DNA of 64,000 nt from an uncultured Bacteroides sp. (GTDB lineage Bacteria; Bacteroidota; Bacteroidia; Bacteroidales; GCA-2748055): assembly GCA_964579515.1 (NCBI GenBank), contig CAZOHA010000001.1, positions 163,484 to 227,483 on the forward strand, written 5' to 3'. Shown piece by piece: positions 42,444-54,321 of the stretch. Numbering within the stretch: position 1 is the first letter of the stretch; each line of letters opens with the position of its first letter. Below the pieces are notes generated by a model that worked only from the letters and a program-made list of their open reading frames with translations, was not told the DNA's origin and made no database searches. Both the position numbers and the translations under genes were made by a program.

Positions 42444-42737
42444 ATGAACATCGAAGAGATCCGCGAATACTGCCTGGCCAGGCCCGGAGTCACCGAAGGA
42501 TTTCCATTCAATGATACGGCCCTGGTCTTTAAGGTCATGGGTAAAATGTTTGCCCTGCTGGATCTCTCAGAAAACAGCCGGGGAATCAGCCTGAAATGTG
42601 ATCCGCAGATGGCTGTGGAGATGCGTGACCGATACCCGGAGGTGACACCGGCCTACCACTTTAACAAGAAGCACTGGAACACGGTGGATCCCAGCGGCAG
42701 CCTGCCCGAAAAACTTTTCCTGGAGCTCATCACATGA
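42444..42737 (+). CDS. MmcQ/YjbR-family DNA-binding protein
   Basis: MNIEEIREYCLARPGVTEGFPFNDTALVFKVMGKMFALL...YHFNKKHWNTV is typical of the YjbR fold. At 97 aa it may be slightly short at the C-terminus. Confidence 0.85.
   Translation: MNIEEIREYCLARPGVTEGFPFNDTALVFKVMGKMFALLDLSENSRGISLKCDPQMAVEMRDRYPEVTPAYHFNKKHWNTVDPSGSLPEKLFLELIT
42468..42627 (+). repeat. Direct repeat, right copy (inside intact mmcQ)
   Basis: Partner of 41189-41347; see that entry. Confidence 0.9.
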
Positions 42738-42742
42738 ATTTA

Positions 42743-43795
42743 TTATAGCGCATACATCCGTTCCGCATTCTTGTAATAGATCTTCTCCAGCACGGGCAGC
42801 GGGAGATCCAGGCCACGGTACTCCTTCACTTTGTCGTCCTGGGTGAACATCCGGTCGGTGGTAAAATAGAGCCAGTCGTCCATCCAGGTTTGCCCGAGGA
42901 TCTGCCGGGCCCTTTGAGCACTCCATCCCGGCTCTCCGTTGCCGCGGATCCCGATATCGGTGCCGTACAACAGCCTGTCCTGGTATTGGATGAGGAAGTC
43001 CCGGACCTTATCACGGTCCTGGTATTTGAAATGGGAAATACGGGCGGCCATATCGACCGTCATGTTCGGGTACTGATCCAGTGACCGGGCCAAATATTCC
43101 ACGTCCCACTCCTGGCTTCCCAGGTGGCATCCCACATATTTCAGCCCGGGGTGCTTTTCCAGCATCCGGTCCCGGGCGGCGATGAGCTCTTCGTAGGAGG
43201 GGTATTCAGGATGAAGGTACATGTGATACTCGGGGTGGCTGGCGAAATAGGAGCTGTCGCCCCGGACGGTCATCTCGCCGAGGGGCAGCCAGCAGTTCTT
43301 CGGTTCGGCGTTGTGGTTCACCAGGGTTTTTCCCCTGGCTTCCACGTAATCGAATATGGGATCGAACCGGGGATCGTCGATCAGGATAAACTCGCCGGAG
43401 GAATCCCGGAAGGTCATCCCGATATCCTTCCAGACCTTCAGGGCGACAGCACCTTCATCGAAGCTCTTTTCCAGCCAGTCCAGGGTGGTCTCTTCCCAGC
43501 CGGGCTCTCCGAAACCATCCATGGAGAAGGTGGTGGCATAGAAAATCTGATCCGGGTGATGGTCGTGCAAGTTCCTGGCGTAAGCATACTCCTGTTCGAT
43601 CTCCGGCCAGGGATTGGCGCGGGTCACCAGGGTGATCAGCCGCAGATGGTTCTCCCCGATGACCTCCACGAACGATTCATCGCAGGTCTCCAGGTGGACA
43701 TGGGCATCGATCTTCGGAAAGGTTTGGAAGGCCGGGTCCGGAGTTCCGGAGCAGCCGGTAAGCAGCAGGACGATCAGCACAAAAGTTGTTCTCAT
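42743..43795 (-). CDS. Amidohydrolase-family (metal-dependent TIM-barrel hydrolase) lipoprotein
   Basis: The start is set at MRTTFVLIVLLLTGCSG (ATG 43795; the tracked ORF is 19 codons longer). The metal motif IDAHVHL lies near the N-terminus. Confidence 0.75.
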   Translation of the reverse strand: MRTTFVLIVLLLTGCSGTPDPAFQTFPKIDAHVHLETCDESFVEVIGENHLRLITLVTRANPWPEIEQEYAYARNLHDHHPDQIFYATTFSMDGFGEPGWEETTLDWLEKSFDEGAVALKVWKDIGMTFRDSSGEFILIDDPRFDPIFDYVEARGKTLVNHNAEPKNCWLPLGEMTVRGDSSYFASHPEYHMYLHPEYPSYEELIAARDRMLEKHPGLKYVGCHLGSQEWDVEYLARSLDQYPNMTVDMAARISHFKYQDRDKVRDFLIQYQDRLLYGTDIGIRGNGEPGWSAQRARQILGQTWMDDWLYFTTDRMFTQDDKVKEYRGLDLPLPVLEKIYYKNAERMYAL

Positions 43796-43839
43796 GGCAG
43801 GAGGTTTATCATTCTTCTGAGATATTAGATGGACCATCT

Positions 43840-45246
43840 CTATAGCTTCCACCCTTCCCGGTACTTCCTCATCACAAAGGAGTTGGCCGGGTTGAAGTTG
43901 GTGATTTTCATGTTTTTTGCATCCCAGAGGAGTTTCTTACGGCCGGGATAGGGATCGCCCGCTTCGGTGCCCGCATACTGGTAGCTGCGGATGGCCAGGT
44001 TGCCCATCAGCACCGCTTCGGTGAAGGGTCCGGCATAATCGAATTTCGAACTCAGGTCCGATTCGGAAGGATCCTTCATGCATGCGTCCACCCAGGCCAC
44101 GTAGTGTCCTTCGGGGACCCGTTTTTCCGTTTTCGGAACATCCGCGATTTGCTCATTCAGTTCAAGCGGCAGCAGGGTGGGCTCCTGACCGTGGCTCCCC
44201 ATCAGTTTTCCCCGGGTCCCTTCGAAAATCACCCCGTTGTCCAGTCGGGCCAGTTCATGATCGGCCGGCAGTTCATCGGGCATCCGGGGACGCAATCCCC
44301 CGTCCATCCAGGTCAGCAGGATGTTCCCCTTTCCGTCGGTACGGGGGAAGGTCAGATGGATGATGGAAGAGGCAGGGCAGCTTTCGGTGTAATGGGCCAC
44401 CCTGAAAAACCCTTCCCAGTTGGTGGTCACACTGCATTCCACGTCGATGGGATAGTCGATGGGAAGGATGCGGAATACCGGATCCATGATGTGGCAGCCC
44501 ATATCGCCCAGGGCCCCGGTGCCGAATTTCCACCATCCGCGCCAGTCGGTGGGATGGTAGGCAGGGTTGTATTCGGTGAATCCGGCCGGACCCAGCCAGA
44601 GGTCCCAGTCCAGTCCGGTTGGGATCACATGCTCACCGGCGGGGGCCGGGATCCCCTGGGGCCAGACCGGCCGGTTGGACCAGGCATAAACCCGGGTCAC
44701 CTCGCCGATCAGTCCGGCATCCACCACCTCTTTCATCCGTCGCACCGGTTCATTGCTGGCGCCCTGGTTTCCCATCTGGGTCACCACGTTGTATTTCCTG
44801 GCTGCTTCGGTCAGCGCTCTGGCTTCGCCGATGCTGTGGGTGAGGGGTTTCTGCACGTATACATGCTTACCCATCTCCATGGCCATCATGGCGGCCACTG
44901 CATGGGTGTGGTCGGGGGTGGAGACCACCACGGCATCGATTTCATTCCGGTGTTTCTCCAGCATTTTCCGGAAATCCTTGTAATAGGGTGCCTGGGGGAA
45001 GTTCTCCCTGGACCTCACAGCCTGCCGGTCATCCACATCGCAAAGAAAGGCGATGGAGGCATGCTTGCTCTCCGCACAGGAGGTCAGGTCGGAAGTCCCT
45101 TTCCCGCCCACACCGATACCGGCGATACGAACCATGTCGCTGGGGGCTACGAACCCGGGACCTCCCAGCACATGCCGGGGGATAACGGTGATGGTGGCAG
45201 CTGCCGCCGAGGCGGTTTTGATAAACGTTCTTCGGTCGGTTTTCAT
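43840..45246 (-). CDS. TAT-exported Gfo/Idh/MocA-family oxidoreductase (GH109-like architecture)
   Basis: Twin-arginine signal MKTDRRTFIKTASAAAA, followed by the Rossmann segment VRIAGIGVGGKG. 468 aa. Confidence 0.82.
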   Translation of the reverse strand: MKTDRRTFIKTASAAAATITVIPRHVLGGPGFVAPSDMVRIAGIGVGGKGTSDLTSCAESKHASIAFLCDVDDRQAVRSRENFPQAPYYKDFRKMLEKHRNEIDAVVVSTPDHTHAVAAMMAMEMGKHVYVQKPLTHSIGEARALTEAARKYNVVTQMGNQGASNEPVRRMKEVVDAGLIGEVTRVYAWSNRPVWPQGIPAPAGEHVIPTGLDWDLWLGPAGFTEYNPAYHPTDWRGWWKFGTGALGDMGCHIMDPVFRILPIDYPIDVECSVTTNWEGFFRVAHYTESCPASSIIHLTFPRTDGKGNILLTWMDGGLRPRMPDELPADHELARLDNGVIFEGTRGKLMGSHGQEPTLLPLELNEQIADVPKTEKRVPEGHYVAWVDACMKDPSESDLSSKFDYAGPFTEAVLMGNLAIRSYQYAGTEAGDPYPGRKKLLWDAKNMKITNFNPANSFVMRKYREGWKL

Positions 45247-45250
45247 GTTC

Positions 45251-46753
45251 CTATAATTTGGGGTTTGTAGTGGCCGGTTTCAGGGTCCACATCTGCAGCA
45301 TGGTCATTTCCACCAGATGATCCATCTCCAGGTCCTCCCGGTGCACGGGCCATCCCTTCATGGAGGCCACCTGGCGGGAAATCTTCTCCGCATTCAGAGA
45401 AGGGTAGGGTTCCATGGGGATCACCTCCAACGATTCCGGGATCTGCCGCTCGCCGGTCCGCAGATACAGATCACTGAAAAGAGCCAGCAGGGACCCGGTT
45501 CCTATCGGGTGACCGTTATAAGGCAGGCCGGCGGGCAGATGACCTGTCAGCTTCATATAACTCAGAGCCGAATCGGCCAGTGCATAAACCCCTTCCACCG
45601 GAACCCGTTCACATCCGGGGGCCTGTTCCGGCATATCCAGCGGTCCCAGCGGCCTTTGTACGGCCAGCTTGAGGGGCCGCCCGGTTTCTTCCCGGCGAGT
45701 ACGGATGGATTCTGCCAGTGCAGCAAAAACCTCGGCAGGTGAATAGTGATCGTCGATGATCACCTTATGCTCCTCCAGGATCCGTCCGGCAATTCTTTCC
45801 AGATCGTTCCGGGTGATGGAGTCGGGCTGGTATGAGAACCTGGAGGCAAGCTCCCGGTAGGTGGTCAGTTCGATATCGTCCCGACCTGCCAGGTAACGGA
45901 CCAGCCTGCGGAAATTTTTTCTGGCCGTCTCCATGCTTTCCCGGGGCCTCAGCTCCGGTGTCTGCCACTGTTCCGGTCCGGGATTGGCCCCGTGGTAGTA
46001 GTTGAAATCCCAGAACTGGATGCTCCGGATCTTGCTGGGATGGTTGGCAAAAAAGGCCACCGCATCCATCCCCCGGATGGTGGCAGGGACCAGCGAATCG
46101 AGTGCCTCCAGCATGGGATCGAAAAGATCGTCATCGTGGTATGCATCATCGAAGAATCCGAAATCACCCTCTCCGTGGAAATTCAGCGTGTTGCAGAACC
46201 AGACCGCATTGTGCCCGGGAAGGTGAACAGGAGAATAAACATATCCTGCGCCCAGCCGCCCCAGAGCGTATACCAGCTGGGGACCATATGATCCTCCGTG
46301 CCGGGCCAGGTTGGCCGGTCGCTGACCGAAGATCCGTTCCAGATCGTCAAACCCGGCGCCCTCATTCTCCAGCATGACAGAGACTCCATTCCGCCAGGAA
46401 GCGTATTCAAGGATCTCGGTAACGGTGGGGTGGATCGAACCGTAATTGGTGTGGCTGCCGATATCGTGCCGGGCCATGGCCTCGATCACATCGGTCCGGC
46501 CTCTTTTTTCCATGGACCGGGCCTTCTCCCCGATGACGAAAAAGGAGCCTGTCACCCCTTCCCCGGTCATGATCTCCGCCAGCCAGCCGGGGATTTTGTC
46601 CATTCCCGCCTCTTCAGGAGAGGTGTAATCCTCCACGTCAAAACAGAGGACCACCGGCACTTTCTCAGCGGTTTGATCCGGATCTCCCTGCCCGGAGCAG
46701 CCTGATATGAGCAGAGAAGCGACAGCAGCTGGTAACAGGCAGAATAGTTTCAT
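45251..46753 (-). CDS. Lipoprotein, possibly a NodB/polysaccharide-deacetylase-like fold
   Basis: Lipoprotein signal (LLISGCSGQ). CFDVEDY and IGSHTNYGSIHP resemble NodB-type metal and catalytic motifs. The function call is weak. Confidence 0.4.
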   Translation of the reverse strand: MKLFCLLPAAVASLLISGCSGQGDPDQTAEKVPVVLCFDVEDYTSPEEAGMDKIPGWLAEIMTGEGVTGSFFVIGEKARSMEKRGRTDVIEAMARHDIGSHTNYGSIHPTVTEILEYASWRNGVSVMLENEGAGFDDLERIFGQRPANLARHGGSYGPQLVYALGRLGAGYVYSPVHLPGHNAVWFCNTLNFHGEGDFGFFDDAYHDDDLFDPMLEALDSLVPATIRGMDAVAFFANHPSKIRSIQFWDFNYYHGANPGPEQWQTPELRPRESMETARKNFRRLVRYLAGRDDIELTTYRELASRFSYQPDSITRNDLERIAGRILEEHKVIIDDHYSPAEVFAALAESIRTRREETGRPLKLAVQRPLGPLDMPEQAPGCERVPVEGVYALADSALSYMKLTGHLPAGLPYNGHPIGTGSLLALFSDLYLRTGERQIPESLEVIPMEPYPSLNAEKISRQVASMKGWPVHREDLEMDHLVEMTMLQMWTLKPATTNPKL

Positions 46754-46781
46754 GCAGATTCAGCTGGATTTGACCTACCAA

Positions 46782-48401
46782 CTAAAGTACATTTTTTTCT
46801 GCTTCCACCGGTTCTTTAGGGGGCGTTTTGCGGTCCGGGCCATCCTTTTCACCCCTCCGGTAGTTTTTATCGTAGTAGCTGGTGAGCGACTTATAAAAAC
46901 TGAAGCACATGACGACCAAAACGATGGCGAAGGGAAGCCCGGTGAGCACCGTGGCGGTCTGCAGGGCGGTCAGCCCTCCGCCGATCAGCAGGATGCCCGC
47001 CACGGTCCCCTCCATGGAGGCCCAGAAGATCTTTTGTCCGGTGGGGGCATCGTGCCTGCCACCGGAGGTGAGGGTATCCACCACCATGGAGCCCGAATCG
47101 GAGGAGGTGATGAAAAAACTGGCCACCAGCAAAACCGCCAGGATGGAGGTAAAAAAGGAGAAGGGAAAGCGTTCCAGCAGATAATAGATGGCGGTGGCCA
47201 CATTGTTTTGAACCGCTTCCGATATACCGGTGAATCCGTTCAGCTCCTGGAAGATGGCTGAACCGCCGAACACACTGATCCACAAAAAGGTAAGCAAGGT
47301 CGGAACCAGCATGACGCCCAGGATGAACTCTTTGATGGTCCGGCCCTTGGAGACCCGGGCGATAAAGATCCCCACAAAAGGCGACCAGGCGATCCACCAC
47401 GACCAGTAGAAGACGGTCCACTGATTTTGCCAGGAGGTGATGTCCCTGGCATTCCGGTAGGAGGCGGTCCAGTAGCTGAGTTCGAAAAATTCGTTGATGT
47501 AGTGGCCGATGTTCTGGACGAACGACTTGAAGATAAAGAGCGTGGGACCCAGCAGAATCACGAAGACCAGCAGAACCAGAGCCAGCCGCATGTTCCACTC
47601 GCTCAGCCTGCGGATCCCCTTATCAAGGCCCAGCACCAGGGAGATGGTGGCAAGAGCGGTGATGACCACTATCACGACGATCTGCACCCAGGTGCCGTAT
47701 TGGAAGTTGAACAGGTAGGTCAGCCCCGCATTGACCTGCTGAGCTCCGAATCCCAGGGAAGTTCCGAGGCCGAACAACGTGGCGATCACCGAAATGATAT
47801 CGATCAGGTCCCCCACCCAGCCGTAGATCTTTTTCCCGAACAGGGGGTAGAAGATGGAACGGATGGTGAGCGGCAACCGCTTGTTGAAGGTGAAAAAAGC
47901 CAGGGCCAGGGCCACGATCGCATAGATAGCCCAGGCATGCACCCCCCAGTGGAGGAAGGTGATTCCCATGGCCGAACTGGCGGCCTCCAGTTCCGATCCC
48001 ACGCTGTTCAGCGGATTGCTTTTAAAATGGGTGATGGGTTCGGCCACGCTCCAGAAGAGCAGACCGATGCCCATCCCGGCGCTGAAAAGCATGGAAAACC
48101 AGGCGGTGCGGGAGAACTGCGGCTTGGCATTGGGTCCCCCGAGCCTGATCTTACCGTATTTACTGGCCCCTATAAAAATAGCAAAGAGTAGCAGGGCATT
48201 CACCAGCAGGATATAAAACCAGCCCACATTGCTGGAGACCAGGTCCTGGGCCCTGACGAACCACTGCTCCATCGGTTCGCCGACGATAAGCGTGACGGCG
48301 ATCAGAAGAGCCACGACAAAAAGGGAGGAGAAGAAGACCGGGCCATTGGCATGGATCCCCAGAAATGTCTTCTCATCACTCCTCTTCAGCTTCTTGGCCA
48401 T
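46782..48401 (-). CDS. BCCT-family (betaine/carnitine/choline) transporter
   Basis: Trp-rich signature WTVFYWSWWIAWSPFVGIFIARVSKGRTIKEF and 12 TM-like segments. 539 aa. Confidence 0.92.
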   Translation of the reverse strand: MAKKLKRSDEKTFLGIHANGPVFFSSLFVVALLIAVTLIVGEPMEQWFVRAQDLVSSNVGWFYILLVNALLLFAIFIGASKYGKIRLGGPNAKPQFSRTAWFSMLFSAGMGIGLLFWSVAEPITHFKSNPLNSVGSELEAASSAMGITFLHWGVHAWAIYAIVALALAFFTFNKRLPLTIRSIFYPLFGKKIYGWVGDLIDIISVIATLFGLGTSLGFGAQQVNAGLTYLFNFQYGTWVQIVVIVVITALATISLVLGLDKGIRRLSEWNMRLALVLLVFVILLGPTLFIFKSFVQNIGHYINEFFELSYWTASYRNARDITSWQNQWTVFYWSWWIAWSPFVGIFIARVSKGRTIKEFILGVMLVPTLLTFLWISVFGGSAIFQELNGFTGISEAVQNNVATAIYYLLERFPFSFFTSILAVLLVASFFITSSDSGSMVVDTLTSGGRHDAPTGQKIFWASMEGTVAGILLIGGGLTALQTATVLTGLPFAIVLVVMCFSFYKSLTSYYDKNYRRGEKDGPDRKTPPKEPVEAEKNVL

Positions 48402-48422
48402 GGGTTATGATAACAGGTCAGA

Positions 48423-49925
48423 CTATTTCAACAACCACATCTCTGCATTCTGGGAATTGGAGCCTCCGAGCCCGTCGACCGCTCCGGCGTAATTATCCGG
48501 GTTGAGGCTCTGCTCGTTCCCGGGATAGGGGAACCTGACCGGTAACATGTCGTCGTTGGTATTCAGGCAGGGAGGAGCCACAAAGGGAAGGGCCTCCCAC
48601 TGGTAATCGTTTTCGTGCATCCACCTCCGGAACTCAAAATAGGGTTCCAGGCCGTGGAAGAAAAGAGAGAGCCACTTCTGTTCTGTGATGGTCAACAGAG
48701 TGTTGTCGAATTCAACGCCTGAACCGGCGTAATAATCTTCGAAATCGTCCCATCCGAACTCCTCAAAACTCACGTCGTAATATTCCATCGATGAGGCGAT
48801 GCCGTCCCTGTAATGGGTGGAAGGATCGTGACCGATCCATCCCCGCTGACTGGCTTCGGCCAGCAGGAATTCCACCTCGGCATGGGTCATGATGATCCCG
48901 TCGGCCTTATCCGAACTGGTGGGATGATTGGGATAATCGTAATAGATCAGTCCCAGCCTGGATCCCGATTTGTCGCATCCGCCGGTTTCCAGTCCGTTGA
49001 CAGCTCCGTCGTATTCCGGCTCCAGGTCAGGGTTTTCGGTCACCTGCCGGATATTCACCGGGCGTGCATAAACGCCCAGGCGCGGATCTCCGTAAGCCTC
49101 CATGGCCCCAACGGCGCTTTCGCTCATGACCACCGCATCGAAATCCCCCTGTTTCAGCGGAACGGTGGGGAATTCGTTGGGGAAGGTGCCGGTGTAGACC
49201 AAAACGGCATTGTCGTCATTGGAGGAGATCAAGAGCCGGTTATTGACAATGGCGGCAAAATCGGACGAAACATCCTGTTTCACCGAAAGATGCATCAGGA
49301 GTCTGAGCCGGAGGGAGTTGGCGAATTTCTGCCATTTCTCTGCATCCCCTCCGTAGAGGATGTCGCCCCCGATGGAGCCGGTACCCGACCCGAGCAGCTG
49401 ATCAGCCTGTTCCAGGTTGTCCAGAAGCCCTCCTTCGGCGGTGAATATTTCCGATTGACCGTCATAGGCGGGGAACCAGTTACCTTCGGTCACTCCGGCA
49501 ATGGCCTCCGAGTAGGGGATATCCCCGTAGGAGAGTGTCAGAATGGAGAAGACCCATGATTTCATCACCAGGGCCGCTCCTTCCATGAGCTGGTTGCCGT
49601 TCTCCCTGGCGATCATCTCCACTTCGGAAATGTTGGCCAGGGCCCCATACATCTCCTCCCAGACGGTGGGGAAGGAGTTCCAGGAATAGACATCCACCTC
49701 GGTCCGGAGTGTTTTGGCGGTCAGCTGGGCAATATTGTTTCCCAGTAGGTAGGATTCGGTGACCATGGCGTTCACCGAACTCCGTATGGCCGAAGTCATC
49801 AGCACATCGCTCGAGACCTCCTCTGGCTGATTGGGATTTTCATTGAGTTCTTCCAGCTCACAGCCCGAAAAAAGAAATCCGGCTGTCAGGAAAGCTGCTA
49901 TGATATATTTGTGAAACGATTTCAT
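48423..49925 (-). CDS. susD: SusD/RagB-family nutrient-binding lipoprotein (SusD-like_2 type)
   Basis: Lipoprotein signal (FLFSGCELE). Lies directly downstream (20-nt gap) of a SusC-type gene. 500 aa. Confidence 0.82.
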   Translation of the reverse strand: MKSFHKYIIAAFLTAGFLFSGCELEELNENPNQPEEVSSDVLMTSAIRSSVNAMVTESYLLGNNIAQLTAKTLRTEVDVYSWNSFPTVWEEMYGALANISEVEMIARENGNQLMEGAALVMKSWVFSILTLSYGDIPYSEAIAGVTEGNWFPAYDGQSEIFTAEGGLLDNLEQADQLLGSGTGSIGGDILYGGDAEKWQKFANSLRLRLLMHLSVKQDVSSDFAAIVNNRLLISSNDDNAVLVYTGTFPNEFPTVPLKQGDFDAVVMSESAVGAMEAYGDPRLGVYARPVNIRQVTENPDLEPEYDGAVNGLETGGCDKSGSRLGLIYYDYPNHPTSSDKADGIIMTHAEVEFLLAEASQRGWIGHDPSTHYRDGIASSMEYYDVSFEEFGWDDFEDYYAGSGVEFDNTLLTITEQKWLSLFFHGLEPYFEFRRWMHENDYQWEALPFVAPPCLNTNDDMLPVRFPYPGNEQSLNPDNYAGAVDGLGGSNSQNAEMWLLK

Positions 49926-49945
49926 CGGTGTGGTCTTTTGGATGA

Positions 49946-52900
49946 TTAAAACATCAGATTCAGGGAGAACCCATAACTTCTCAGGGAGGGGAGCTGGGTG
50001 CTCTCGTACCCGTTGACGAAGCGGCCGTTGCGGATCGAATAGGTTTCCGGGTCCACAGTGGGGTACTGGCTGAACAGCAGCAGGTTCCTTCCCACAACGG
50101 AGACACTGGCCCGGCTGATGCCGATCCGGTCGGTGACTCCCACCGGCAGCAGGTAGGTCAGTTTCAGTTCTCTCAGCTTGATGTAGGTGGCATCGAAGGT
50201 GGCTGCTTCCACGTTATCGCGGTTGAACCAGTTCCCGTAGTACTTGTAGAAGTAATCTCTCACAGGAACCCTGACGCTGTTCTCTGTCAGGTTGCCGTCT
50301 CCGTCATACATCACGCCTTCGCCGATGATACCGCCCTCCTCCACCAGGCTGTATACGGGCTCCCCGTTGGTATCATAGGTAATGTCATATATCTCCCGTC
50401 CCTCCAGGGTGGAACGGTCGAGTTTGGGATCGTCGTAATTGGTGATCGTGCCCCCGGTGTTGTTCATGGCGTGGGAACGGGAATAGAGTTTCCCGCCGAT
50501 CTGTCCGTCGAAAAGCACATTCAGGGTCCAGTTCCTGTAGGAGAAGGTGTTCTGCCATCCGATCCGCAGGTCGGGCTGGTAGGTACCCACCGAATGCTTA
50601 TCCTCGGTCAGCACCGGCAGACCGTCCTCGTGGATGATCCTTCCCTGGTCGTCCCTCTCGAAGATCAGTCCCCTGATCAGACCCAGCGGCTGTCCCTCTG
50701 CTGCGACCAGCTCCATATCGGCCGAACCTTCATCCCCGGGGTAGACATCAGCCACCAGGGGGTAGCTCTCTTTCACTCCTTCGGGAAGTGATTCCACGAT
50801 GGCCCGGTTGTGCCCCAGGTTGAGGATGCTGGTCCATACGAAATCGGAGCGGCGCACCGGTTCGCTGTAGAGCTGGAACTCGATCCCTTTGTTGCTGATC
50901 TCCCCGGCATTGACCAGACGGGTATCCTTTCCGGTGGTGAAGGCCACCGGCAGAGAGATGATCTGGTCCTTACTGAGCATGTCATAATAGGTGACATCGA
51001 ATCCGAACCTGCCCACGAAGAAGCGGGAATCGAGACCGATCTCCCAGGAGTTGGTCCGCTCGGGCCTCAGATCCGGATTGGCCGCAAAACTGCTGACCGA
51101 ATAGGCCGGGAAGCTGCCGAACAGCGCCCGGGGGTTGTAGAAACTGCGGAGAAGGTAGGGATCGGTATCATTCCCCACCTGGGCGTATGCCCCCCGGACC
51201 TTCAGAAAGGAGATGGATGAGCTGGCGGGCAGGTCCATCGCTTCCGAAAGCACCGCACTCAGCGAAACCGAGGGATAAAAGTAGGAGTTATTCTCCGGGG
51301 GCAGGGTGCTCGACCAGTCGTTCCTGGCGGTCACATCGAGATAGAGAAACCGCTGGTAGGCGAGGGTGGCCATTCCGTAGAGGCTGTTGATCCCTTTCCG
51401 TGCCCTGGGATTATCTACCAGGATATTGGACCGGTTGTTGGTCAGGGTGAACACCCCGGGTTGAAGCAGCTGGGGATTGTTGGCGATCAGCATATTGCTC
51501 TCCTGGCGCATGATGTTCCCTCCCGCTTTCAGATCGAGGGTCAGAGGGCTGCCCCCGTCGCGGGAGGTGTTGTAGGAGAGGAGGAACTCGGCGTTGGATT
51601 CAGTGAAGGTGATCTCGTCCTCTCGGTAGCTGCCGAAAGGCACCCCTTTGGTGGAGGTGGCTCTCCGGAACTGACGCTGTTCATTCTTAAGATCGAGTCC
51701 GTACCGGACCCTCAGGTTGAACTGATCGGTGAAGTGATAGGTGGCTCTGGCATCCCCGATCAGCCGCTGCTCCTGGAACGAGTTGGTGTTCTCGTTGACG
51801 ATGAACCAGGGATTGTTGCCCCACAGCTCTTCCACATAGCGCTGCTGTACATTCTCCCGGCCCTCTTTCCAGTAATCGGTGAGCTCGTCGACACCCACCT
51901 GGCGGGGGTACCACAGCCACACATACATGATCGAACTGCTTTCATCATACCCTGCGTTGGGGACATTGTCGGAGTTGTTGCCCACATACATGGTGTTGAT
52001 AGATACCTCCAGTTTCCCGTCGAACAGATTCCTGGAGATGTTGGAATAGAGGGTATTCCTTTTCAGGTTGGTATTTGGAACCACCCCGCGCCGGTACATG
52101 TTGGTGTAGGAGAGCCGGAAGTTGCCCTGGCTGGAGGACTGGTTGATGGCCACGTTGTTGGTGGTCAGGACCCCGGTCTGGAAGAAGTTCCTCACATTTC
52201 CCTCGGCCGGAGTAAACGGAACCGGTTCTCCGCCGGAGTTCCATTGTTTGATCGGCGTGCCGTCCATCCTGGGGCCCCAGTTCTCACCGAAGGCATCGTA
52301 GTAATCCCCGGTATAGGTGGCTCCGTCGTTGTAACTGAATTTGCCGTAGCCGCCGAATCCATATTCATTCTGGTAATCGGGGAGTTTCAGAGGGGACTCG
52401 AAATAGGTGGCAGTGTTCAGCTCCACTCCGAAACCGTCCGATTGGGTTCCTTTTTTGGTGGTTATCAGGATCACCCCGTTGGCTGCTCGCGAACCGTAAA
52501 GCGCCGCGGCTGCAGGTCCTTTCAGCACCGAAACACTTTCGATGTCGTGAGAGTTGACGATCTGGGCGGCGTTCCCGAAATCGATGGTGGTGGATCCGTT
52601 AAGACCGTCTCCCGGACTGTAGAGCCCGTTGGTGATGGGAATCCCGTTCACTACGAACAATGCCTGGCTGTTGCCGGTCAGGGAGGACTCCCCCCGGATG
52701 GTGATATTCGCCGAGGCGGCGGGTCCTGCAGAACCGCTGGTGATGTAAACACCCGCGATCTTTCCCGAAATATTATTGATCATGTTGGGAGTCTGCATGG
52801 AGTTGATGGCCTTCTTGTCCAGCTTCTGGACCGAATAACCCAGCGCCTTCTCCTCCCGGGCCACCCCCAGGGCGGTGATCACCACCTCCTCCAGTTCGGC

Positions 52901-53221
52901 CGATTCCACCAGCGAAACCATGATTCGCTGCTGGTTGACTATATTGACTTCCAGTGATTCATAGCCCACATAGGAGATCACGATGGTTTCATCATCTTCG
53001 TTGACATCCAGGGTAAAATTGCCCCGGGCATCGGTGATGGTTCCCCTGGTGGAGTTCTTTACCACTACGTTGGCCCCCAGAAGAGGGGTGCCGTCTTTCG
53101 ACTGTACGGTCCCGGTAATGGTCCTCTCCTGCTGGGCCCAGAGGTTGCCTGTAAAAAAGAAGAGCAAGATCAGCAGGAAAACAGGTTGTTTAGGTGTAAA
53201 AACAGGTGTAAACACTTTCAT
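49946..53221 (-). CDS. susC: SusC/RagA-family TonB-dependent outer-membrane transporter
   Basis: The start is set at MKVFTPVFTPKQPVFLLILLFFFTGNLWAQ (ATG 53221; the tracked ORF is 26 codons longer). CarboxypepD_reg-like domain (ITGTVQSKDGTPLLGANVVVKNSTRGTITDARGNFTL), plug, and a barrel ending FSLNLMF. Confidence 0.93.
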   Translation of the reverse strand: MKVFTPVFTPKQPVFLLILLFFFTGNLWAQQERTITGTVQSKDGTPLLGANVVVKNSTRGTITDARGNFTLDVNEDDETIVISYVGYESLEVNIVNQQRIMVSLVESAELEEVVITALGVAREEKALGYSVQKLDKKAINSMQTPNMINNISGKIAGVYITSGSAGPAASANITIRGESSLTGNSQALFVVNGIPITNGLYSPGDGLNGSTTIDFGNAAQIVNSHDIESVSVLKGPAAAALYGSRAANGVILITTKKGTQSDGFGVELNTATYFESPLKLPDYQNEYGFGGYGKFSYNDGATYTGDYYDAFGENWGPRMDGTPIKQWNSGGEPVPFTPAEGNVRNFFQTGVLTTNNVAINQSSSQGNFRLSYTNMYRRGVVPNTNLKRNTLYSNISRNLFDGKLEVSINTMYVGNNSDNVPNAGYDESSSIMYVWLWYPRQVGVDELTDYWKEGRENVQQRYVEELWGNNPWFIVNENTNSFQEQRLIGDARATYHFTDQFNLRVRYGLDLKNEQRQFRRATSTKGVPFGSYREDEITFTESNAEFLLSYNTSRDGGSPLTLDLKAGGNIMRQESNMLIANNPQLLQPGVFTLTNNRSNILVDNPRARKGINSLYGMATLAYQRFLYLDVTARNDWSSTLPPENNSYFYPSVSLSAVLSEAMDLPASSSISFLKVRGAYAQVGNDTDPYLLRSFYNPRALFGSFPAYSVSSFAANPDLRPERTNSWEIGLDSRFFVGRFGFDVTYYDMLSKDQIISLPVAFTTGKDTRLVNAGEISNKGIEFQLYSEPVRRSDFVWTSILNLGHNRAIVESLPEGVKESYPLVADVYPGDEGSADMELVAAEGQPLGLIRGLIFERDDQGRIIHEDGLPVLTEDKHSVGTYQPDLRIGWQNTFSYRNWTLNVLFDGQIGGKLYSRSHAMNNTGGTITNYDDPKLDRSTLEGREIYDITYDTNGEPVYSLVEEGGIIGEGVMYDGDGNLTENSVRVPVRDYFYKYYGNWFNRDNVEAATFDATYIKLRELKLTYLLPVGVTDRIGISRASVSVVGRNLLLFSQYPTVDPETYSIRNGRFVNGYESTQLPSLRSYGFSLNLMF

Positions 53222-53478
53222 GATCACTAATTTTAGGTAATTAGTTTCTGTACCAAATAAAAGATGCTGCAAAACAACATAAAAAGGCTTATATAGCAAA
53301 ATTTTACCATGGCTATATCGGGAAAGGAACGCGTAAAAAATTGAGAAACAAGGAAATGTTAATTAACTGTTAACTATAACTAAACATTGTTAGCTATACA
53401 ATAGTTCGTACAGGAATGATATTATTGAATTTCAGGGGAAAACGCCTGAAGGATACCCGGTCAGGATTCAGGATATTT

Positions 53479-54321
53479 TCAGCGCAAAAGTTGAAAAAGC
53501 CGGTGATAGGTCTCACTCTGTTTCTGCTCAAGCAGCCTTTCGCCGATTTCATAGGCCTTTTTATGGCCCCCGGTATAGTAGCGGTAAAAAAGCGATCCGA
53601 AGACCAGAAAGCCGTCCAGAAGACTGTATTGCAGGGTAGTGTAATAGGAGTAGAATCCGATGGCGGTCAGCAGTCCCACTGAATTGAGTGCCGCCGCCGG
53701 TTCTCCCCCGTAGAGCTGACCGAGCCCCGGAAGCACGATGCTCATGGTCTGGAGACGGTCGGGATCGTATTTTTCACGGAACTCCGAATAATCCGTAAAC
53801 ATCTCCTCCACCTGGTGGTAGGAGGAAGAATCGAGGATGGACGCGAAATGCTCCAGAGAGGCAGGAATCTCGTTCAGACCGAACCGGCAGATGCCCATGT
53901 AAATCTGCCGCCGGAATTCAAACCGCGGGGGCAGCTGTTCCGGCATATCGTAGAGTTGGGCAAGCGCCATCAGGTATTGTTCCTGGCGGAAATAGCAGAG
54001 GGTCTTCCGGAAAGTCATTTCGAACCGGGCGGAGTCGGTCCTGCCCGCCCTCCATGCCAGGTCGTAAAACCGGATCGCTTCATCGAAATTCTTCTGCTCG
54101 AAGTAGATGGATGCGATCCGCTCATACAGCCCGGGAAATTTATTCCCCTCGTCGAAAAGCAGCACCCTCTGGTACTCCTTCAGTGCCGCCTGCGTGTTCC
54201 CGGCCTCCAGCTGCCGGTCGGCAAAACGTTTCACCTCCTGCAGGGATTGTGCATGCGTTCCCGGAGCCGGCAAAAGGCAAAGAAGGCTAATAATACCTGC
54301 GAATAATATCCCCTGCCTCAT
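53479..54321 (-). CDS. Signal-peptide protein with a TPR-like region and a C-terminal PGxGQxY membrane domain (DUF5683-like); paralog of 54287-55147
   Basis: Signal peptide (LLCLLPAPGTHAQS). TPR-like helices (ALKEYQRVLLFDEGN..., EAIRFYDLAW). C-terminal SIVLPGLGQLYGGEPAAALNSVGLLTAIGFYSYY. Confidence 0.55.
   Translation of the reverse strand: MRQGILFAGIISLLCLLPAPGTHAQSLQEVKRFADRQLEAGNTQAALKEYQRVLLFDEGNKFPGLYERIASIYFEQKNFDEAIRFYDLAWRAGRTDSARFEMTFRKTLCYFRQEQYLMALAQLYDMPEQLPPRFEFRRQIYMGICRFGLNEIPASLEHFASILDSSSYHQVEEMFTDYSEFREKYDPDRLQTMSIVLPGLGQLYGGEPAAALNSVGLLTAIGFYSYYTTLQYSLLDGFLVFGSLFYRYYTGGHKKAYEIGERLLEQKQSETYHRLFQLLR

Follow-up and report, generated by a model that had tools for sequence, protein, structure and literature searches.

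A SusC-SusD-BCCT gene cassette in an uncultured Bacteroides sp.: a candidate uptake system for small methylated amines or betaine-type solutes

Organisation of the gene cluster

The window analysed here is a stretch of 64,000 nucleotides (nt) from an uncultured Bacteroides sp. (contig CAZOHA010000001.1). It contains a run of six genes on the minus strand, which encode in order a SusC/RagA-type TonB-dependent outer-membrane transporter, a SusD-like surface lipoprotein, a BCCT-family carrier, a lipoprotein of 500 residues, a Gfo/Idh/MocA oxidoreductase and an amidohydrolase-type lipoprotein (Table 1). The gaps between them are 20, 21, 28, 4 and 44 nt; the genes, their order and these gaps were recomputed from the coordinates and match the original prediction for this locus exactly. 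That prediction also held that the run carries no recognisable glycoside hydrolases, and searches with Pfam and NCBIfam profiles indeed place none of the six proteins in a glycoside hydrolase or polysaccharide lyase family. The first three genes form a cassette that is recurrent across marine and saline Bacteroidota and is very probably one functional unit. The six-gene arrangement, by contrast, arose recently and by chance through insertion and deletion, and its design is not conserved.

The SusC protein is recognised by TIGR04056 (609 bits) and also by the SusC signature TIGR04057. Pfam resolves it into a carboxypeptidase-regulatory-like N-terminal domain, a plug and a barrel, and detects no STN signalling domain in it. 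Among solved structures it comes nearest to BT_2264 (5fq6, E 6e-116). The SusD protein matches SusD-like_2 with 271 bits. Its clade-specific residues are F85 (K, Q or R in the sister clades), F248, F448, D261, D397, R74 and K258; two phenylalanines besides F85, and two aspartates, are present in the SusD proteins of the cassette and missing from the sister clades. To judge from the alignment, F85 and the additional phenylalanines and aspartates hint at a shift from anion to cation binding.

The third protein is a full-length BCCT carrier, matching PF02028 with 646 bits over positions 1-483 of 485 and TIGR00842 with 520 bits against a cut-off of 408. It contains the motifs AGMGIG (the GxGxG motif in TM3), HWGVHAWAIY and YWSWWIAW (the aromatic boxes in TM4 and TM8). 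According to the work on the trimethylamine carrier TmaT, which explains the meaning of the motif and of the aromatic boxes, GxGxG denotes the Na+-coupled type of BCCT (PMC11708041), and the carrier is probably Na+-coupled. TmaT is also its closest characterised and solved relative (8zw8, E 4e-172, 51% identity), followed among the solved structures by a BCCT of unnamed substrate, a choline transporter and BetP. The carrier is the single BCCT match in the whole genome, which is 97% complete.

Table 1 Coordinates of the features discussed. Positions are those of the window, except where a comparison locus (L number) is named.
Feature	Position	Strand	Remarks
SusC/RagA-type TonB-dependent outer-membrane transporter	49946-53221	-	start ATG 53221
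SusD-like surface lipoprotein, lipobox FSGC	48423-49925	-	PF12771; marker of the cassette clade
BCCT-family carrier	46782-48401	-	PF02028
500-residue lipoprotein, N-terminal CE4/NodB fold	45251-46753	-	AlphaFold model and Foldseek
Gfo/Idh/MocA oxidoreductase, twin-arginine-type signal	43840-45246	-	GFO_IDH_MocA N- and C-terminal domains
Amidohydro_2 lipoprotein	42743-43795	-	PF04909; lipoprotein start MRTTFVLIVLLLTGCSG
Non-coding leader 5' of SusC	53222-53478	-	AT-rich; short palindromes TAGCTA, GTTAAC, TTAATTAA
Stretch without counterpart in the closest relative (G007)	46646-53503	.	holds SusC-SusD-BCCT and leader
280-residue lipoprotein after BCCT	L117 6610-7449; L122 10228-11079; L123; L143; L146		
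Neighbours of distant SusC/SusD relatives (examples)	L171 9913-12313; L181 2102-2782, 11315-13800; L159 254-835		

Two of the starts allow a choice. The SusC reading frame is open beyond the ATG up to a TTG at 53299, the ATG being the most plausible start, and the amidohydrolase frame has a longer GTG version to 43852, the most plausible start being that of the lipoprotein signal at 43795. The leader is presumed to be the promoter/operator region of the cassette. A scan for sigma-70 promoters gave fewer matches than shuffled sequences, the sigma-70 consensus being uninformative for Bacteroidota. In a simple scan of the coding strand, none of the five gaps showed a terminator-like site. The sole terminator-like hairpin after the run lies at 42672-42696 (-), 47 nt beyond the amidohydrolase stop and within the 5' part of a yjbR-like frame. 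The gene upstream of SusC in the window encodes a TPR protein.

Conservation of the SusC-SusD-BCCT cassette

Among the 80 loci fetched with the BCCT protein from the reference-genome sample, two have SusC (55-57% identity), SusD (54-56%) and BCCT in the order and orientation of the window. They belong to metagenome-assembled genomes (MAGs) of Roseivirgaceae (L026) and Saprospiraceae (L042). The trio is also present, together with a gene for a universal stress protein (Usp), in one of 400 sampled Bacteroidota genomes (G155). A scan of metagenomes with the SusD alignment yielded 40 contigs having a SusD of at least 44% identity; the BCCT gene adjoins the SusC/SusD pair (SusCD) in 33 of them, and the other seven contigs end before the position would be visible. 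The BCCT gene is mostly directly downstream, the exceptions being L127, with one open reading frame (ORF) in between, L132, where it is divergent, and L148, where it lies upstream. A BCCT neighbour is absent from all SusD relatives whose identity is about 41% or lower. Adjacency is thus found in 37 loci including the window, from several Bacteroidota lineages, and every cassette locus has a SusC orthologue (48-65% identity).

In the trees, the SusD proteins of the cassette form one clade, with a support of 99, against phosphatase-linked sisters, and the main SusD subclades correspond to BCCT subclades. As judged from these shared subclades, the linkage of SusC, SusD and BCCT is old, and SusD and BCCT have diversified together. 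The tie between BCCT and SusC/SusD, which had been proposed from the window alone, is borne out by the adjacency across lineages and by this parallel diversification.

The recurrent neighbours of the cassette are limited to a MarR-type regulator directly upstream of SusC (nine loci), a Usp gene beside BCCT (six) and a lipoprotein of 280 residues (five); OsmC, pirin and a sulfate permease are found as further neighbours. No catabolic enzyme recurs among them. This bears on whether the locus is a polysaccharide utilisation locus (PUL). It has an adjacent SusC/SusD-type pair, as a PUL should. There is, however, no carbohydrate-active enzyme (CAZyme) conserved with the pair, the CE4-fold and Gfo/Idh/MocA proteins of the window being missing from all other loci with orthologous SusCD, and there is no linked glycan sensor, other cassette loci carrying the MarR regulator instead. 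The view that this is not a classical polysaccharide locus, already put forward in the original prediction, is therefore supported.

Several observations on single cassette lineages may be added. The 280-residue lipoprotein, which carries an LLIGNSFF motif and has no Pfam match, follows BCCT in five related contigs and may be an esterase. In G155, a protein of 378 residues is encoded between SusD and BCCT (L201 7098-8234 (-)); it has a signal peptide and no Pfam match, alternates many times between aromatic and hydrophilic segments, and may form a barrel in the outer membrane. A different ORF, of 296 residues, occupies the same position in L127. Two types of palindrome in the SusC leader, each conserved in a lineage of its own, are candidate operators: one of the type GACAGA-N3-TCTGTC, about 90-110 nt upstream of SusC in one clade (L118-L126, L143, L149 and L178), and one of the type TTTCTATAGAAA, about 50-80 nt upstream of SusC in the clade whose SusC is preceded by a MarR gene (L135-L140, L144 and L155).

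Insertion of the cassette in this lineage

The window was compared with 40 related genomes, 24 of the same genus and 16 others of the order. None of the 40 has a SusD orthologue (the best match is at 33% identity). A BCCT match is absent from all 24 genomes of the genus, and is found in two other genomes of the order at just 58-60% identity. The closest relative is G007 (L009/L090), for which colinearity was established by blastn against L090. The flanks align at 72-84% identity, and the stretch holding the cassette and its leader does not align. Conversely, about 4.8 kb of G007, between the genes for the 500-residue lipoprotein and the Gfo/Idh/MocA protein, has no counterpart in the window. 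The order in G007 is a DUF5916 gene, followed further on by a YidD-like gene, two TPR-type genes, the gene for the 500-residue protein (74% identity), three unrelated genes, the Gfo/Idh/MocA gene (88%) and the amidohydrolase gene (85%).

By this alignment, the cassette has been inserted with respect to G007, and the tight run of six genes therefore goes back to two events in this lineage, an insertion and an indel. There is no mobile-element signature in the form of direct or inverted repeats flanking the cassette, and its GC content is close to that of the surroundings.

The three downstream enzymes

No homologue of the 500-residue protein, the Gfo/Idh/MocA protein or the amidohydrolase is found in the other cassette loci. 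The three enzymes are resident genes and not parts of the cassette, and it is only in this lineage that all are adjacent.

The 500-residue lipoprotein had been described as NodB-like. This label is upheld by the fold of its N-terminal part of around 300 residues, and not by Pfam, which gives no match at E <= 0.01; there is no NCBIfam match either. Searches of the PDB by sequence and by profile returned nothing significant, the profile search giving just the chitin deacetylase 2iw0 at E 0.71. The AlphaFold model has a pLDDT of 87.8, and the top 18 matches found for it by Foldseek in the PDB all have the CE4 fold of the deacetylase/esterase superfamily, with TMt about 0.5-0.7. They include 3rxz (E 8e-8), HP0310, ArnD, PuuE and the acetylxylan esterase 7fbw (TMt 0.71). 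The residues D39, E41, D42, H96, H101 and H108 are invariant. The canonical metal-binding motifs of CE4 enzymes are D-D and H-x3-H, and the spacing of H96 and H101 is one residue longer than in the latter. A C-terminal domain of around 200 residues has no known function.

The family of this protein has at least 659 relatives, some of which carry a precomputed PF01522 match, and its neighbourhoods differ between a Bacteroidales genome, an Acidobacteria MAG and a Chlorobi-type contig. The orthologues in ten more genomes of the same genus lie away from the Gfo/Idh/MocA and amidohydrolase genes. One same-genus orthologue is split by an in-frame TAA and is probably a pseudogene (G013:C14:73089-74544; L101 10077-11544). 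In the complete Bacteroidales genome CP070687 (L001 12142-14821), a relative has as neighbours a xylose-isomerase-like protein (AP_endonuc_2/XylA2_C), a glucuronoyl-esterase-like protein and a fragment of a 3-keto-disaccharide hydrolase; two of these neighbour families belong to 3-keto-glycoside chemistry.

For the Gfo/Idh/MocA protein, a twin-arginine signal had been noted. The motif DRRTFIK is visible, and the profile scores for it are marginal (TAT_signal E 0.0098; TIGR01409 16.5 against a cut-off of 16.7). The protein matches NF058561 (BT_2158_fam) over its full length at E 2.4e-148, with 494.7 bits against an equivalog cut-off of 750, and the PDB entries 8tdf and 8tdh at about E 1e-101 (8tdf over residues 31-459, E 6e-101). 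Of the two activities that had been suggested for it, GH109 was rejected, because the GH109 structure 6t2b matches just residues 30-183, the Rossmann part, at E 2.6e-8. The other, oxidative glycoside cleavage, agrees with membership of the BT_2158 and 8tdf/8tdh group, and the profile and structure matches mark the protein as related to the periplasmic glycoside 3-dehydrogenases of the BT_2158 family. A literature search on 8tdf returned nothing pertinent. Its 88%-identical orthologue is found beside the amidohydrolase gene in G007 only.

The label of amidohydrolase lipoprotein stands for the last protein, which matches PF04909, a family of metal-dependent TIM-barrel enzymes, with 54.9 bits against 26.4 (E 1.5e-14) and has the HxH motif IDAHVHL, with H32 and H34 invariant. 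No PDB relative was found by sequence or profile search. The AlphaFold model (pLDDT 87.2) has as its nearest folds the ACMSD-type decarboxylases, LigJ and LigY, with TM about 0.5-0.6. The word amidohydrolase names a superfamily and not a reaction: the fold matches span decarboxylases, hydratases and C-C hydrolases, and the PF04909 family also includes lactonases. In thirteen same-genus loci the orthologues (45-68% identity) have no close Gfo/Idh/MocA relative as a neighbour, and they are often found beside aspartyl-tRNA synthetase and an unknown protein of 371 residues.

A single conserved six-gene pathway was considered and rejected, because the contexts of the 500-residue protein, of the amidohydrolase and of the cassette do not overlap except in this genome and, in part, in G007.

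Proposed function

On the basis of these comparisons we hypothesise that the run consists of three units. The first, SusC-SusD-BCCT, would be a self-contained and horizontally mobile uptake cassette. The second would be the CE4-fold lipoprotein and the third the BT_2158-like dehydrogenase together with the PF04909 enzyme, both of them resident, and now directly behind the cassette because this was inserted and about 4.8 kb is absent here. On balance the cassette probably serves to scavenge a small methylamine or betaine-type solute with energy from TonB, a reading drawn from protein families and gene neighbourhoods. At the cell surface, a small (methyl)ammonium solute would be bound by the SusD lipoprotein. 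The SusC barrel, powered through TonB, would concentrate it in the periplasm against its gradient, and the BCCT carrier, probably Na+-coupled, would carry that molecule, or the amine part of it, over the inner membrane. The likeliest cargo would be a small methylated amine or quaternary-ammonium solute, in the class of glycine betaine, choline or trimethylamine, which the cell would take up from low concentrations and retain as an osmolyte or as a protectant against stress, and expression of the cassette would respond to stress through lineage-specific regulators. We infer here the direction of transport, the passage of one cargo through both membranes, the class of cargo and its role as an osmolyte.

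The enzyme content of the genome fits accumulation rather than breakdown of the cargo. There is no PF00743 match, and hence no candidate flavin-containing monooxygenase (FMO) or Tmm, in the 97%-complete genome, nor is there an MttB-family match for a demethylation route from betaine or trimethylamine. Three weak GMC-oxidoreductase matches (57-59 bits) say nothing either way on choline oxidation.

The relatives of the SusCD pair that lack a BCCT neighbour also bear on the cargo. In the nearest of these clades (40-45% identity), the pair is followed by an Exo_endo_phos gene or by HAD-like and PhoD-like phosphatases (L202 10536-11486; L203 10978-13200). The phosphatase context of these two loci suggests an uptake of organophosphorus compounds like that by the PusCD system of Flavobacterium johnsoniae. 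Around more distant relatives (SusD 33-38% identity, L151-L194) there are genes for DUF5690, a FAD-dependent oxidoreductase, a PhnZ-like HD-domain protein, a HAD hydrolase, a class-III aminotransferase, an alkaline-phosphatase-like enzyme and a phospholipase C (PLC)-type phosphoesterase, and these loci look like ones for the use of aminophosphonates or phosphoesters. The presence of sister clades beside phosphatases and aminophosphonate-type genes points to a lineage of SusCD pairs for small polar solutes. A more specific proposal, which we put forward tentatively and at slightly less than even chances, is that SusD evolved from a binder of small organophosphorus compounds to a (methyl)ammonium binder and that SusC feeds the BCCT carrier, giving marine and saline Bacteroidota a dedicated route for compatible solutes or methylamines, energised by TonB at the outer membrane, and with it a high-affinity scavenging system across two membranes for betaine, choline or trimethylamine at nanomolar concentrations.

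Several points weigh against the scavenging of a methylamine or betaine-type solute. The carrier scores 579.7 bits with the betaine_BCCT equivalog NF047988, below its cut-off of 650. It is only 51% identical to TmaT, to which proteobacterial BCCTs are equally similar, and the residues that it has in common with TmaT are present in quaternary-amine carriers too, so that trimethylamine is not separable from betaine or choline by sequence. The use of SusD and TonB for a solute of 60-120 Da is unusual, since molecules of that size might be expected to pass the outer membrane by way of porins. In the tree, stand-alone BCCTs fall within those of the cassette, which indicates that in many genomes the carrier can do without SusCD. 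Close relatives are numerous among the metagenome contigs, and the 37 loci represent perhaps 8-10 independent lineages. Finally, the three enzymes may be co-transcribed with the cassette in this genome: given the tiny gaps and the lack of terminators, they are possibly expressed with it, and a functional link may have been acquired.

The last point leads to the pathway of the original prediction, in which a glycoside or conjugate bearing a quaternary amine or N-acyl group would enter through SusCD, be processed in the periplasm by the three enzymes, and release a charged product for import by the BCCT carrier. The genes share a strand and are separated by 4-44 nt, all three enzymes are probably exported (two have lipoboxes and one a twin-arginine-type signal), and the family of the dehydrogenase oxidises glycosides in the periplasm (PMC8121099). 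The enzymes are, however, present in none of the 36 other cassette loci, and G007, which lacks SusC, SusD and BCCT, has all three in place, the first being separated from the second by three other genes. Elsewhere in the genus, as described above, the enzyme genes are not adjacent to each other. Periplasmic cleavage by these enzymes feeding BCCT in a single pathway is therefore improbable. A different source of the amine would be an ester or phosphonate precursor: SusCD would import an amine-bearing compound such as phosphocholine, glycerophosphocholine, a choline ester or an N-methylated aminoethylphosphonate, and periplasmic phosphatases or esterases encoded elsewhere would free choline or a methylamine, the sole product to be taken up by BCCT. 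The phosphatases next to the nearest sister clades, the PhnZ-like, aminotransferase and phosphoesterase genes of the distant ones and the organophosphorus cargo of PusCD are in keeping with such a precursor, as is the possible esterase that follows BCCT in five cassette loci. That lipoprotein, however, has no Pfam match and is confined to one closely related lineage, the members of the cassette clade have no phosphatase or esterase in common, and the phenylalanine at position 85, where sister clades have K, R or Q, would fit the loss of an anion-binding contact. We regard the import of a precursor as rather unlikely, though it is the strongest of the alternatives.

A third possibility overlaps with the solute scavenging that we favour, and makes it more specific: trimethylamine would be imported as by TmaT and turned into trimethylamine N-oxide (TMAO) as a protectant against pressure or stress. 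TmaT is the closest characterised relative, lies in the same Bacteroidota BCCT clade beside the cassette members L132 and L201 (with weak support in the tree), and has its binding residues, the methionine in GMGIG and the two aromatic boxes (PMC11708041), kept in the carrier. Against this stand the modest identity, the fact that the kept residues are common to quaternary-amine carriers (PMC11708041), and the size of trimethylamine, which is very small for a SusD-type binding protein. No FMO-like gene is present in the genome of the window or in that of L026, and the other two cassette genomes have weak partial matches of 64 and 98 bits. The lack of such a gene makes the route from trimethylamine to TMAO unlikely here, and we give this version of scavenging a low probability. 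Scavenging of a methylamine or betaine-type solute, without commitment to one cargo, is the reading that we retain.

Implications

Glycine betaine, choline and trimethylamine are important currencies of marine carbon and nitrogen and are relevant to climate, and Bacteroidota are major consumers. To our knowledge, how solutes of this type cross the outer membrane has not been addressed so far. Full-text searches of a collection of papers brought up no work connecting BCCT carriers to SusC/SusD or to TonB-dependent uptake, the one match being an unrelated cockroach metatranscriptome. What would be new here is a SusCD-type importer with a non-glycan cargo, coupled to a BCCT carrier. Should the cassette indeed be a two-membrane route for (methyl)ammonium solutes, as proposed tentatively above, it would represent the first osmolyte system of the SusCD type, and SusCD the first outer-membrane component assigned to BCCT-mediated uptake.

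SusC and SusD are routinely taken as markers of glycan use in the annotation of Bacteroidota genomes and ocean metagenomes. By that practice, a conserved SusCD pair with a BCCT carrier as its sole fixed partner would be entered as a PUL whose substrate is unknown, when it is more likely to belong to the cycling of osmolytes or methylamines. The three-protein system is directly testable. The window also carries a more general lesson, namely that tight gene spacing does not turn an operon into a pathway: half of this run comes from one insertion and one indel.

Comparison with known systems

A classical Sus-type PUL resembles the window in that a SusC/SusD pair heads a co-directional run, with a CE4-fold protein and a member of a glycoside-oxidising family behind it here. 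It differs in that the conserved unit of the cassette has neither a glycoside hydrolase or lyase nor a sensor of the hybrid two-component or ECF/anti-sigma type, and in that the inner-membrane partner is a BCCT carrier and not a sugar permease. The BT2156-BT2160 pathway, in which BT2158 is needed for the use of disaccharides through 3-keto intermediates (PMC8121099), is comparable for the dehydrogenase alone, which has a twin-arginine-type signal and matches the BT_2158 family over its full length, with a score below the equivalog cut-off. The DUF1080 hydrolase, the sugar-phosphate-isomerase-like protein and the second dehydrogenase of that pathway are not adjacent here, and a PF04909 enzyme is found instead.

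Among solved SusC proteins the closest is BT_2264, of the BT2263-BT2264 pair of Bacteroides thetaiotaomicron (5fq6). The SusD-like lipoprotein BT2263 was isolated with a peptide ligand (bioRxiv 10.64898/2026.09.03.749221). The SusD of the window is distant from it, matching at E 1.4e-11 over the N-terminal part only. We know of no BCCT partner for BT2263-BT2264.

TmaT is the Na+/trimethylamine symporter of Myroides profundi D25, a marine member of the Bacteroidota (PDB 8zw8; PMC7997507, PMC11708041). It is alike in being a Bacteroidota BCCT of the same clade, with GMGIG and both aromatic boxes kept at 51% identity, and differs in that it is described as working with the monooxygenase MpTmm, for which the genome of the window has no FMO-like counterpart. 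The papers on TmaT mention no TonB-dependent or SusC/SusD partner (PMC7997507, PMC11708041).

A parallel in kind is offered by the PusCD complexes of F. johnsoniae. Growth on phosphatidylinositol and glycerophosphoinositol depends on them, and one of them, PusCD1, binds inositol phosphate (bioRxiv 10.64898/2026.09.03.749221). Both systems have a SusC/SusD-type pair without a conserved CAZyme partner and, for the cassette by proposal, a small polar molecule other than a glycan as cargo. The pus loci lie beside phosphatases, as do the sister clades of the SusCD pair in the window, the comparison being one of gene context and published description. They differ in carrying phosphodiesterases, phosphatases and extracytoplasmic function (ECF) sigma and anti-sigma factors and in serving phosphorus nutrition, whereas the cassette has no enzyme, BCCT as its fixed partner, and MarR and Usp as frequent neighbours. 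The findings on PusCD establish that machines of the SusCD type can handle small polar cargo that is not a glycan, and the SusC-SusD-BCCT cassette would extend that evidence.

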